Source: Escherichia coli (lineage in GTDB: Bacteria; Pseudomonadota; Gammaproteobacteria; Enterobacterales; Enterobacteriaceae). From it: a DNA stretch of 64,000 bases. The first letter of the stretch is position 1, and every line of letters starts with the position of its first letter. Both the position numbers and the translations under genes were made by a program. Under the pieces are notes generated by a model. It worked only from the letters and a program-made list of their open reading frames with translations. It searched no databases and was not told the origin of the DNA. This document shows positions 47,879 to 52,425 of the stretch, in pieces. Location of the stretch: the NCBI RefSeq assembly GCF_041248615.1, contig NZ_CP158426.1; one strand, given 5' to 3'.

Positions 47879-50011
47879 TCAATCTTTAAGACTAATTGTG
47901 ATTGCATCTGGAAATCCAATTTGGCTATAGCACATAGTTTCGGTTATGAATAATTTTCTATCGATAAAATCAAGTACATCTTTTTTCGTGAGCCCCGTTA
48001 ACATCGTCAATTTGTTAATTACATAATCATACCAATCATGGTGAAGCATGTTTATATACATGTTAATATCAACTGCATCTTTCTTCCATGAATTATTCGG
48101 TATCAAATCTTCAGATAAAAATCCTCTTATTAAATCGCTTGCATAGGACATCCTAAGAAAAACAGAAAGAAAAAGCCTTACATTAACATGTGTAAAATTT
48201 GTAGATAGCGTCGAAGGAAACTCGTAAAACCGGTAGATCAACCGACTTACAAAAACAGCAGAGTCTATCGCATTTACAGGCAGTAATGTTCCGATGACAC
48301 TTAATGCACCACTTATAACGAAGCCATTAGCAACAGAGGCATGAGAACCACTTAGGGCAGATGTTAAACATGCACTCAGAATTACGATAGGAGGAATTCT
48401 TGCTATTTTTCTCAAACTCCAAGTGTCCACTTTATCCTCACCTATTATTAACCATCCATGACTCCCATTGCCATCATGGTTTCCATGACAATCCATAACA
48501 AGAATATGACCTTGATATTGATTTAGAGCATCAATAAACTCAGCTTTCGATCTAACATCAATAATCTCGCAATCAAGATCTGGCATCTGTTTTTTAAATA
48601 TCTCAATTGCGTTCTCTAATATGAACTTTAAGTGATCATCAGGCTCAAAAGAACGTATAACTAAAACCTTTCTCAACTCAGATGCTTTTACTAAAACGCG
48701 CGGAAAAGCAGAGGCGCTCTGTAGAAGAACGTTACCAGGCGTAGCATTTATTCTTGATATCTCATGACTGAACATTATAGGTATGTTATTAAACCTAATC
48801 CAATCCAATGGTACATCACAAACAAAGGACAAATCGCTATAGTTTTTACTTATATATGTTCTCAACTTGCAACCAAGGGCTCTTCGAATAACAGTATTGA
48901 ATGCTTTAGATTTAGTGATGAATGCTTCACTATTTATCCCAGAAGAAGTTGCAAGATCTTCAAGATTTTTCAAATAATTGGAGTAATGATTTATTGCATT
49001 TGGCAATCTTATTGCTGGGATTTTTTTATTTATGCTAAATAAAGTAATCGCAGCTGTTGTTAATCGCATTTCAGCGCGTCTTAGTGAGGTGAGGTAACGG
49101 AAAGCAGGACTTTTAAAAAGTTCTTTTCTATCTGAATTTATATCAAGTCTAATTCCAGAATAGCCTGGATTCCTCAACACTCCATCAATAAGGAATTTTT
49201 TCTCAATTGTGGATAAATTTTCCGTTATTAACTCATAAAAGTCATTATTTTTATCATATAAAAAAGAGTGCATACCCGGAGCAAAAAGTAAGACTTCCGT
49301 TGGAAGTGGTATATCTAATTCCTTTAAACATTCGGTGTATGCATCAACGCTATGAAGTATTATTTCTATAAACTCTCTTTTGCTACTACCATCTTTAATT
49401 CTTTTTGGTGGAGATAGCATATAGCCAAGTGATTCAATTAACAACTCATTGGGTAGTGTTGAATTGTTAAGCGTCGATCTCCAAGGTGATTTATTAAATA
49501 AAGCCCCTCTTCGCTTCAACTTCGTTGATATTTTCTTTTCACTGTGATTTTTTCTTATTTTATCCTCAATGAATTTCAACCGAGAGAAGAGCACCTTATC
49601 AAATGAGTATATACTATTAATCTTATTAAGTGGTAGATCAGCGCGTTTAGAATTGCAACAAATTATAGGTGGTATAGCAAAATGTTTTTTTAAAGCACAA
49701 ACATACGAAAAATCTTCTTTAGCACAAAAAATTAAGCAAAATGGCGTTTGATAAATATTTGGTATTTTTTCAAGATTTTCTTTAGATATTAAAAAAATAG
49801 GATTTAGCCCGCTTAGAGTAGGCTGAAAGTTATCATTTTCACTGACAAAAATCTCACTAATTTCTTTTGGTGTTTTGGCCAATAAAAAAAGAATGTTGGA
49901 TATCTCTGGGTTGAGGAGGCCAGTATCGAAACCTTGGATTATGGTTTGTTCCCCAGTAGTAGGCATGATTACAACTTTAAGTATCGCCCCGTGTTCCTGT
50001 AACAGTTCCAT
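47879..50011 (-). CDS. CHAT-domain (caspase-like cysteine protease) protein with an uncharacterised N-terminal region
   Basis: C-terminal GHILVMDCHGNHDG ... PPIVILSACLTSALSGSHASVANGFVISGALSVIG has the His-Gly / Ser-Ala-Cys catalytic signature of CHAT peptidases; AGGA SD before MELLQ; strongly AT-rich. Confidence 0.6.
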   Translation of the reverse strand: MELLQEHGAILKVVIMPTTGEQTIIQGFDTGLLNPEISNILFLLAKTPKEISEIFVSENDNFQPTLSGLNPIFLISKENLEKIPNIYQTPFCLIFCAKEDFSYVCALKKHFAIPPIICCNSKRADLPLNKINSIYSFDKVLFSRLKFIEDKIRKNHSEKKISTKLKRRGALFNKSPWRSTLNNSTLPNELLIESLGYMLSPPKRIKDGSSKREFIEIILHSVDAYTECLKELDIPLPTEVLLFAPGMHSFLYDKNNDFYELITENLSTIEKKFLIDGVLRNPGYSGIRLDINSDRKELFKSPAFRYLTSLRRAEMRLTTAAITLFSINKKIPAIRLPNAINHYSNYLKNLEDLATSSGINSEAFITKSKAFNTVIRRALGCKLRTYISKNYSDLSFVCDVPLDWIRFNNIPIMFSHEISRINATPGNVLLQSASAFPRVLVKASELRKVLVIRSFEPDDHLKFILENAIEIFKKQMPDLDCEIIDVRSKAEFIDALNQYQGHILVMDCHGNHDGNGSHGWLIIGEDKVDTWSLRKIARIPPIVILSACLTSALSGSHASVANGFVISGALSVIGTLLPVNAIDSAVFVSRLIYRFYEFPSTLSTNFTHVNVRLFLSVFLRMSYASDLIRGFLSEDLIPNNSWKKDAVDINMYINMLHHDWYDYVINKLTMLTGLTKKDVLDFIDRKLFITETMCYSQIGFPDAITISLKD

Positions 50012-50144: not shown

Positions 50145-51362
50145 CTAGTCTGAACAAGTACAAGTAACTATCGATTCAACTCTCTCCCACCATGCCTGGT
50201 AAGCTTTACGCTGTTCATCTAAATAATCGCTCTTGTCATAAACCTGCCATACCCCTGGCAGTTTATGACCGAGCATTATTTCTGCAATATGAGGTGCAGT
50301 AAGATCAGAAAAGTTTGTTCGTGCTGTTCGTCTCAAATCATGAAGAGACCAATGAGGGAATTGATACCCCAAACGCCGCCATGCGTACTGCATTAAATTG
50401 TAAGGCAGCGACTGCAATGATGTCCGGCCAACGGGTTCCCTGCTTCCTTCCTTAGTAAAAAGCATATCGGAACCATTGTTCATAGAGATAACGTACTTTA
50501 TAAGCTCTTCAACCGGTTCAATAATGGGGCGCTTTAGCGGTTCGCCTGTTATATCCCCTGTCTTATGTCGTTCTGGCGGTACAGTCCATACCTTATTAAT
50601 GAAATCAAAATCATTCACCCTAGCGGTAATTAGCTCTGAACTACGGCAGCCAAAATGCAGCAATAGTTTAATGAAGGCCCGGTATTTAGGAACCATTCGA
50701 GAACCATCGATCGCAGCATAAAGGATTTTAATTTCATCATGTGTCAGAAACCGTTTCTTCTGACCTTTACGGATATCCATATCTTTACCCGTGATATCCG
50801 ACAGCGGGCGAGTTTCAATGAGCTTTCTCTTATACGCCCAGACATGGGCCTGCTTTGCGTTAATTAGCAATCGGTCTGCTATTGCTGGAGTCTTAGTGCT
50901 AAGAGGCTCCAGGACTTCTAACCAATCATGCAATGTAGCTGCATCGTGAGGGATATTCCCGATTTTAGAGAACAGGTGCAGCTCAAACGAGCGGAGTATC
51001 TGTTCAGAACCTTTTTTATTTTTTACACAATATGCTTCATACCAGGCACGGATCACAGACTCTACCGTCATGGCTTCAGTAGCTTTTCGTTTTTCAGCCT
51101 GCTTGACTAATCGTGGATTGCGGTTTGACTCGAGTTCACCACGGAGACGGATAACTTCTTCTCTGGCCTCTTTTAATCCAGTTGCCGGGTAAGTTCCGAT
51201 ATCAAGGCGCTCACCTTTCCCTGCCCATTGATAACGATATTGGAACACTACGCGACCTTTCGGTGATACTCTGACAGACAGACCATCACGATCGGATTTA
51301 ACCAAAACCTTATCACGTTCCTTTCCAACGACTGAACGCAACCACGCATCAGACAGCGCCAT
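50145..51362 (-). CDS. tyrosine recombinase / phage integrase (P4-type)
   Basis: 405 aa; N-terminal DGLSVRVSPKGRVVFQYRY; C-terminal HDLRRTART ... LGH ... Y catalytic pattern. Confidence 0.85.
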   Translation of the reverse strand: MALSDAWLRSVVGKERDKVLVKSDRDGLSVRVSPKGRVVFQYRYQWAGKGERLDIGTYPATGLKEAREEVIRLRGELESNRNPRLVKQAEKRKATEAMTVESVIRAWYEAYCVKNKKGSEQILRSFELHLFSKIGNIPHDAATLHDWLEVLEPLSTKTPAIADRLLINAKQAHVWAYKRKLIETRPLSDITGKDMDIRKGQKKRFLTHDEIKILYAAIDGSRMVPKYRAFIKLLLHFGCRSSELITARVNDFDFINKVWTVPPERHKTGDITGEPLKRPIIEPVEELIKYVISMNNGSDMLFTKEGSREPVGRTSLQSLPYNLMQYAWRRLGYQFPHWSLHDLRRTARTNFSDLTAPHIAEIMLGHKLPGVWQVYDKSDYLDEQRKAYQAWWERVESIVTCTCSD

Positions 51363-51591
51363 TACTCACCTTGTACAAATAAAAAAACACCTCTGCTGTT
51401 TTGTACATTATGTACAAGCACATGTACAGATTTTTGATGAAAGCAACCTGATCGATTTAAAGTTACATGAAAGAATTTTCAATTAAAGAAACCACATAAC
51501 ATCATGTTATTAAATGAGTTATATGATTAGCACTCAATTAACTGAAAGGACTTTGAAAGAGTAAAAGAGCTTTAATTTGGGCTTAATTATT

Positions 51592-51657
51592 GGGGTGAGA
51601 AATAATGGCAAAAGTGCGGCGCTTCGCCACCTCTTGCAAATAAGGAGACAACGTCAT
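51592..51657 (-). pseudogene. prfC: prfC (peptide chain release factor 3) first 22 codons, cut off by the prophage
   Basis: Minus strand encodes [22 protein letters not shown], then diverges into AT-rich prophage DNA just before the expected P-loop DAGKT. Confidence 0.7.
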
Positions 51658-51747
51658 AATTCTTTCTTCTTGAGTAAGCGGCATCGCGCCGCGCTTGTTG
51701 AAAACGAAAAATTGCGGCTATTTTACCCATCAACGGGGGGGAGGCAA

Positions 51748-52425
51748 TCAGTGTTTACACAGGAGCTGCTCCAGTTCGTGCAACGAAGAAACGGTCCAGG
51801 TAGGCGCGATGCCTTCTGGTTGCTCGCGATTGTGCGCATTCAGCCAGCAGGTCGCAAGCCCGGCGTTGATGCCACCGAGAATATCGGACTCGGCAGTGTC
51901 GCCAACCATCAGCACGCGTGAACGGTCAGGATTGCCCGCCTGTTCCAGCGCATAATCGAAAATTTTCTTATTCGGTTTGGCTACGCCAACTTCTTCGGAA
52001 ATCACCAACAAATCGAAATAATCACGCAGGCCCGTGCGTTCCAGACGCACTTGCTGCAAGGCGCTAAAGCCGTTGGTGATGATGCCGATTTTGGCGTTGC
52101 CACGAATGGCGTTAAGCAGAGAAACCGCGCCCGGCAGCGGCGTACAGATTTCCGCCATCGCATTAATAAAGGCTTCGTTGAGTTTACCCGGCTCGACGTT
52201 CAGTCGTTCGGCCCAGCTCTCAAACCGCCCGTGCTGAAGCTGTAATGAAGTGATCGCGCCGTTTTGATAATCCACCCACAGTGGCTTGTTAACGGCCTGA
52301 TAGTCCTGAAAATCTTCAGCGGTAAAGGTGACGCTGTAATCAAGAAACATCCGCTGCAGGCCGGTGAATGAGTCAAAGGTAAACAGCGTTTCATCGGCAT
52401 CAAAGAAAATCCAGTCCCACTTCAT
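51748..52425 (-). CDS. yjjG: pyrimidine 5-prime-nucleotidase YjjG (HAD family)
   Basis: 225 aa, matches E. coli YjjG. Confidence 0.9.

Follow-up and report, generated by a model that had tools for sequence, protein, structure and literature searches.

The prophage in prfC and its integrase

The window, that is the whole stretch of 64,000 nucleotides of the Escherichia coli contig NZ_CP158426.1 that was analyzed, contains the integrase gene (int) of a prophage and one junction of this prophage with the host chromosome (Table 1). To the left of int there are a CHAT-domain gene and a copy of IS1414, beyond which lambdoid prophage genes for early functions, lysis, head and tail are found; yjjG, rimI and holD are to the right. 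The element is a lambdoid prophage of the cdtI/Stx type, positioned in the 5' end of prfC. In about 4,700 E. coli genomes that do not carry the element, homology to the window starts at position 51593, inside codon 22 of prfC, and thus the phage has inserted at about this codon. The att core was defined by comparing the window with the empty site of K-12 and with the opposite junction in strain DCE7. On the prfC/int strand the core is ATTATTTCTCACCC, which codes for the residues I-I-S-H-P of RF3. The 5' end of the native gene is orphaned, and prfC at the far junction, in the region L100 24140-24240, has a phage-derived start codon and N-terminus, i.e. a replacement 5' end supplied by the element.

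Table 1. Positions of the features discussed, in the window unless a locus (L006, L100) is given
Feature	Position	Strand	Remarks
Mu-like prophage	1-2900		
Mor gene of the Mu-like prophage	315-701		
yadA-like gene, N-terminal part	2051-2863		
IS1414, second copy	7459-8667		
Xis-like (HTH_17/MerR-type) recombination directionality factor gene	46254-46436	+	Homologue of the int-linked small HTH family
IS1414	46485-47693		
CHAT-domain gene	47879-50011		710 aa
Tyrosine integrase gene (int)	50145-51362	-	405 aa; from its three domains and identity to phage cdtI Int
Shine-Dalgarno of int, AGGTGAG	51365-51371	-	
P' arm site h	51372-51377	-	Proximal inverted site; 15 nt upstream of int ATG
P' arm site g	51402-51407	-	Inverted; overlaps site f, with which it forms the palindrome TTGTACATAATGTACAA
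P' arm site f	51411-51416	-	TTGTACATAAT as read on the int strand; 54 nt before the int ATG
P' arm site e, int-distal	51423-51428	-	CTGTACATG as read on the int strand; 66 nt before the int ATG
Rest of P' arm, core to TGTACA cluster	51429-51592		Four TGAAAG in the same orientation: 51438, 51468, 51543, 51554
att core common to attL, attR and attB	51593-51606		Plus strand GGGTGAGAAATAAT, 14 bp
Orphaned native prfC 5' end	51593-51657	-	Start codon and ~21 codons left at the junction
Native prfC promoter	51747 to 51720		Sigma-70 consensus scan
Far-arm TGTACA, same genome	L100 24222, 24234, 24262, 24331		
cdtI attP, P arm TGTACA	L006 2574, 2643, 2671, 2683		
cdtI attP, phage-borne prfC start codon	L006 2709		
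cdtI attP, core	L006 2757-2770		
cdtI attP, P' arm TGTACA	L006 2935, 2947, 2956, 2986		
cdtI attP, int ATG	L006 3001		

Int consists of a DUF4102-type arm-binding domain (PF13356, Arm-DNA-bind_3; residues 3-90, E=1.9e-16), a Phage_int_M domain and a tyrosine recombinase catalytic domain. Over its first 80 residues, Int can be aligned with the arm-binding domains of known structure 3JTZ/3RMP and 3JU0. The protein shares 99.5% identity with phage cdtI Int and 97% with the Int of Stx1a/Stx2c phages. Phages of both these types have been located at prfC in the literature (PMC10132054). Smyshlyaev et al. placed the cdtI Int in the 'SXT cluster' together with the SXT/R391 integrases, all of which target prfC (PMC8138268); the placement of the Int studied here is that of the cdtI Int in this published phylogeny, carried over by the near identity of the two proteins. 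Int adjoins yjjG in ~699 of 5,426 complete E. coli genomes (~13%). The window is 100% identical to the genome of E. coli NRZ14408 (NZ_LT599825.1) across the 1.7 kb compared.

Several insertions have altered the prophage. A Mu-like prophage splits the lambdoid yadA-like gene and a second copy of IS1414 disrupts the tail gene region, so the lambdoid prophage is defective. The gene for the Xis-like protein has its last 11 codons replaced by 7 others, resulting in a protein of 60 residues compared to 64 in phage cdtI, because the first copy of IS1414 inserted at its 3' end. The prophage is therefore probably impaired for excision. The CHAT-domain gene is positioned between int and xis, which overlap tail to tail in relatives. 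This gene is also found in phage cdtI and in strain DCE7, has a low GC content of 33-35% and looks like inserted cargo.

TGTACA repeats on the two att arms

Four copies of the hexamer TGTACA occur within 57 bp in the region that is 10 - 66 bp upstream of the int ATG (51362, minus strand). An initial annotation had described four such hexamers in about 60 bp between the integrase start and the junction, and this description is exact in the number and in the placement of the copies. The hexamer is not enriched in the window as a whole, in which there are 11 copies compared to 10.5 in shuffled sequences, 7 of the 11 being outside the cluster. With these 7 copies per 64 kb as the background, the chance of finding at least four in 57 bp is ~6e-11 per position and ~4e-6 window-wide. 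When 11 sites were placed at random in 200,000 trials, none of the trials gave a comparable cluster.

The int-distal copy, site e, is still 165 bp from the att core. It is the first of a direct pair at 12-bp spacing and corresponds to conserved block A in an alignment of homologues (alignment A2). The second member of the pair, site f, is the best conserved of the sites and has the consensus TGTACATAAT. Site g is present only in the lineages of E. coli, Salmonella, Pantoea and Trabulsiella. Site h, whose last base changes together with the first base of site f from lineage to lineage, directly adjoins the Shine-Dalgarno sequence of int.

The int gene is oriented away from the adjacent att core, and 230 bp separate the core from the int ATG; the published mean gap for int genes that are predicted to be autoregulated is 208-228 bp (PMC2951348). 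Because the sites abut the Shine-Dalgarno sequence, any int promoter must be upstream of them or across them. The sole consensus promoter between 51200 and 51800 is that of native prfC. This promoter-like site and the first 21 codons of prfC now read through attL into int, and no terminator-like site was found between the two. A scan of 13 homologues with a sigma-70 position weight matrix gave int promoter candidates that are weak and are not conserved in position. An Rfam search of 51000-52000 at E<=1 gave no structured RNA.

A comparison with the other att arm had been set beforehand as the test for candidate arm-type sites. The far end of the prophage is outside the window, 37 kb to the left, because the Mu-like prophage split the yadA-like gene. 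In the same genome, the far arm contains four copies of TGTACA in 115 bp, which stand between the prfC gene with the phage-derived N-terminus and a dinI-like gene. The far arm of strain DCE7 likewise has four copies and, in the circular record of phage cdtI, where both arms are contiguous, there are four on each side of the core. The copies of the P arm are 69-183 bp and those of the P' arm 165-221 bp from the core, giving an attP of at least 418 bp in which the P' set ends at the int ribosome-binding site. Each arm holds one pair of copies with a start-to-start spacing of exactly 12 bp, and the pattern TGTACA-N6-TGTACA is confined to att arms among the 100 loci scanned. The crossover core is thus flanked on both arms by a repeated motif that is distinct from the core sequence.

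Two sequences resembling LexA boxes (CTGT-N8-ACAG) are located upstream of the dinI-like gene and adjoin the outermost far-arm TGTACA (L100 24360-24410; L005 5998-6050). A LexA box across the int-proximal cluster was also considered and was rejected on the by-eye misfit to the CTGT-N8-ACAG spacing, the genuine boxes being those in the other arm before the dinI-like gene.

Conservation and covariation among integrase homologues

Homologues were obtained from a protein search and the encoding contigs, from phage and plasmid records, and from a scan of one genome per species. A scan of IMG/VR with the integrase alignment gave E. coli copies alone, which are 97-100% identical, mostly end at the int start and carry no divergence information. 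In Salmonella (85% Int identity), Pantoea (83%), Xenorhabdus (65%) and Serratia (61%), TGTACA is found at or near positions -66, -54, -45 and -15 from the int ATG and the remainder of the 230-bp arm has diverged. In 13 homologue lineages, 33 copies fall within 100 bp before the int start, compared to 5 in the other 63 kb, a 320-fold density that does not translate into a clean P-value because the lineages are related. Alignment A2 has just three conserved blocks: site A, site B (the consensus of site f) 12 bp later, and ATGTACA immediately before the Shine-Dalgarno sequence.

The same architecture was found in 61 further loci with Int identities of 33-99%, ranging over Enterobacterales, Pseudomonas, Acinetobacter, Vibrio, Shewanella, Halomonas, Methylobacter, Burkholderiales and Micavibrio, and many of these loci have a prfC-type core 211-250 bp upstream of int. 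In all, about 60 homologues from many genera, with identities of 33-85%, were compared, and little is kept in front of their int genes beyond an NGTACA pair at a spacing of exactly 12 bp and an inverted copy that adjoins the ribosome-binding site. These sites keep fixed positions in homologues with as little as about 40% Int identity. The oriented site is approximately NGTACA(T/A)A(A/T). An alphaproteobacterial homologue has GGTGTAAA/TTTACACC in an equivalent layout. In a Moraxella phage, a 'plate protein' gene beside int is the sole cue to morphology.

In 35 of 40 loci, the second site begins with the base found at the matching position of the inverted proximal site; lineages with C/C, A/A and G/G combinations are among them. 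Site B begins with a base other than T in 20 loci, and such a base is present in 16 of the 35 loci that agree. The variant CGTACA is found in Pseudomonas and Micavibrio, AGTACA in Pantoea septica, Methylobacter, Halomonas and Ectothiorhodospira, and GGTACA in Salinicola. Since the first bases match at the paired sites, a single protein seems to recognize an oriented site that is at least 7 bp long. TGTACA is palindromic, which is unusual for oriented arm sites, and the orientation was taken from the flanking bases and from the non-palindromic variants that relatives have. The palindromy in E. coli is incidental.

A sister clade, in which Int is ~45% identical, includes Klebsiella phage 5 LV-2017 and elements of Kluyvera, Citrobacter, Edwardsiella, Franconibacter and Enterobacter. 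It has TGTCCA-N6-YGTCCA and two inverted TGGACA at the equivalent places and a TGTCCA-N6-TGTCCA pair on the far arm, as found in the contiguous attP of two circular records. The arm-binding domain of this clade contains GLWVR, TFFYR and DKMTIG, compared to GLSVR, (V/T)FQ(Y/L)R and R(L/V)D(L/I)G elsewhere. The changes, S to W, FQ to FF and R-x-D to K-M-T, are predicted, by analogy with other arm-binding domains, to fall in the three β-strands of the domain. The switch to TGTCCAT occurred in a single clade and represents one evolutionary event, so its agreement with the residue changes is suggestive rather than statistical. A site for a host factor was considered and rejected, since the motif changes with the integrase clade inside Enterobacterales, and does so within the same host family.

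The peptide MK(N/H)IRNFSIIAHID, which we take to be the N-terminus of LepA/EF4, is encoded 228 bp upstream of the sister-clade int (loci L007, L135, L138-L141, L143, L145, L150, L153, L168 and L169). This suggests that the target of the sister clade is the 5' end of lepA, and that the codons used there are paralogous to those of the prfC core (IIAHID compared to IISHP). In the circular records L168 and L169 the element itself carries a replacement LepA-like 5' end.

One family of small HTH proteins is encoded convergently with int in 38 of 65 loci, in the TGTACA and TGTCCAT groups alike. Its members give weak HTH_17/MerR matches and some records annotate them as excisionases. As this Xis family is inherited with int, co-inheritance alone cannot separate Int from Xis as the binder of the motif. 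A separate array of 3-4 GACA units with an exact 10-bp period directly precedes the NGTACA pair, at about -110 to -190 relative to int. By a strict pattern, the array is present in 12 of the 65 loci (L097, L107, L108, L111, L114, L116, L156, L165, L135, L141, L095 and L124), compared to one match in 454 kb of background, and it is unchanged between clades that differ in the NGTACA/TGTCCA motif. It fits the conserved Xis family better than it does Int, making Xis the better candidate for its reader. In the E. coli lineage, the equivalent stretch is occupied by the TGAAAG repeats (CTTTCA on the int strand), which are also found in the arms of Salmonella, Pantoea and Trabulsiella. These repeats are candidate sites for Xis or for a host bending protein.

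Probable arm-type sites and the alternatives

The TGTACA repeats are very probably functional sites of the recombination module, and the sequence comparisons point to the arm-binding domain of Int as their likely reader. We consider, with good confidence, that they are the arm-type sites of a P4-like integrase of the SXT cluster; the int-proximal set may also repress int, in the manner of IntS of KplE1. The suggestion in the initial annotation that these are candidate arm-type sites is supported by the presence of the motif on both arms, by the arm-binding domain in Int, and by conservation and covariation with the integrase lineage. The regulatory role that was offered beside it may apply to the cluster as well.

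The N-terminal domains of Int (residues ~1-90) would occupy the eight arm sites and the C-terminal domains the core. The arms would then be bridged to the core, as in lambda, P4 and KplE1, forming an intasome for integration or, together with Xis, for excision. Int could also repress int, since the P' set reaches the ribosome-binding site of this gene and is downstream of, or across, any promoter: bound between the promoter and the start codon, Int would block its own synthesis. In a lysogen, the bound P' set would shield int from the native prfC promoter that now points into attL. Such a gate would matter in the lysogen, since the prfC promoter is directed into int with no terminator-like site between them. 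Given that the promoter scans gave no strong conserved match upstream of int, autoregulation is a step that we infer, and the chances that the P' set does serve it are roughly balanced.

In an alternative explanation, TGTACA is bound not by Int but by the Xis-like directionality factor, which would oligomerize on the tandem copies, bend the arm and repress int. Sites of directionality factors are typically short tandem repeats, TorI represses intS via sites in attL (PMC2951348), and the homologous HTH family accompanies int in both motif groups. Nevertheless, this explanation is unlikely. Several copies of a motif on both arms are a hallmark of Int arm sites, whereas the characterized directionality factors work on one arm, where sites in the same orientation would be expected; TGTACA is found on both arms and in both orientations. 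Furthermore, the motif is kept in Pseudomonas, Moraxella phage Mcat15 and Methylobacter, where no adjacent xis was called, and the GACA array, with its 10-bp period and its constancy across clades that differ in the motif, is better suited to a conserved Xis.

It is still less probable that the repeats are operators or promoter elements, used by RNA polymerase, a phage repressor or a host regulator for int expression alone, and have no role in recombination. The position of the cluster immediately upstream of int, adjoining the ribosome-binding site, fits such a function, as does the resemblance of TTGTACA to a -35 hexamer and of CATAAT within TGTACATAAT to a -10 element. However, the same motif clusters on the far arm, beside prfC and away from int, and it is kept in elements that share the int/xis module alone (lambdoid phages, a Moraxella phage, Pseudomonas/Vibrio islands). 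The promoter predictions are weak and vary in position. A chance cluster of a short palindrome in AT-rich intergenic DNA, for which the lack of window-wide enrichment could be cited, is refuted by the comparative data and has a negligible probability: the density upstream of int and the low window-wide probability of the cluster argue against it, as do positions that are kept at 61-85% integrase identity despite diverged flanks.

The assignment of the repeats as Int arm-type sites might be extended, very tentatively, to one arm-site code for the whole SXT cluster, the SXT/R391 ICEs included, with an int gate and a core that retargets between prfC and lepA; we regard this extension as rather doubtful. 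The code would consist of a direct pair of NGTACA(T/A)AA at 12 bp and an inverted copy where int begins, with this set present again on the far arm. The int-proximal copies would constitute an Int-operated gate insulating int from the captured host promoter (that of prfC, or of lepA in the sister clade). A change in core specificity would allow the family to switch its target from one paralogous translational-GTPase gene to another, and the arm sites would co-evolve with the arm-binding domain.

The arrangement resembles that of the IntS-TorI system of KplE1 (CPS-53)/HK620 in E. coli, where int is likewise transcribed away from the adjacent att site, a ~220-bp gap upstream of int is filled by attL with P' arm-type and directionality-factor sites, the P' sites overlap the int expression signals, and xis is uncoupled from int (Panis et al. 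2010, PMC2951348). In KplE1 both IntS and TorI repress intS, the P' sites overlapping the -10 element and the TorI sites flanking the -35 element (PMC2951348). The two systems differ in that IntS belongs to another integrase branch and targets the argW tRNA gene rather than the 5' end of prfC. The P' sites of KplE1 share TAAA and the TorI sites are GTTCG-like, in contrast to TGTACA here, and for the present int the promoter and its repression are predicted by analogy.

The satellite phage P4 also has an integrase with a DUF4102-type arm-binding domain, and a long attP, adjoined by int, in which arm repeats flank the core on either side, but its target is the leuX tRNA gene, its arm repeats are different, and Vis is reported to act differently on int expression. 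In P4, Int and Vis reportedly regulate Pint negatively, findings attributed to Pierson and Kahn (1987) and Piazzolla et al. (2006). The attP of lambda, like the one proposed here, is bound by a heterobivalent Int, has arm sites on both arms (P1, P2 and P'1-P'3), including tandem copies spaced by about one helical turn and copies in either orientation, and contains Xis/IHF sites between the arms and the core. Unlike the present int, that of lambda is expressed from pI/pL and not from the att side; furthermore, the lambda arm consensus is unrelated (CAGTCACTAT type), its attP is shorter (~240 bp) and the N-terminal domain of its Int belongs to another Pfam family.

The facts on SXT int and prfC are said to go back to Hochhut and Waldor (1999) and Burrus and Waldor (2003). 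As described in three publications, IntSXT of SXT/R391 belongs to the same integrase cluster and targets the 5' end of prfC (PMC8138268, PMC5812530, PMC4344509), and the element gives prfC a new 5' end and has xis convergent with int (PMC5812530, PMC4344509, PMC8138268). According to the same publications, SXT differs in that its int is transcribed from the SetCD-dependent promoter Ps003 and does not itself adjoin the att arm (PMC5812530, PMC4344509, PMC8138268).

A literature search for the motif together with integrase and attP returned only Gateway and serine-integrase papers, and no description of arm sites for this integrase cluster was found in the searchable literature. Thus a known arrangement, arm-type sites and a Pint that overlaps attL, is proposed here for an integrase cluster whose motif is apparently unrecorded, and since the mechanism is a textbook one, the gain is incremental. 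Arm-type sites set whether, and in which direction, a prophage or an ICE recombines. The integrase cluster covers the cdtI and Stx1a/Stx2c phages at prfC and, by published phylogeny, the SXT/R391 resistance ICEs. With the motif and its layout defined, the attP, attL and attR of such elements can be delimited in genomes, and there are mutational targets with which the stability of toxin-converting prophages can be examined. The alternation of TGTACA and TGTCCAT, with matching changes in the arm-binding domain, offers a natural specificity switch with which to study DNA reading by DUF4102 domains.
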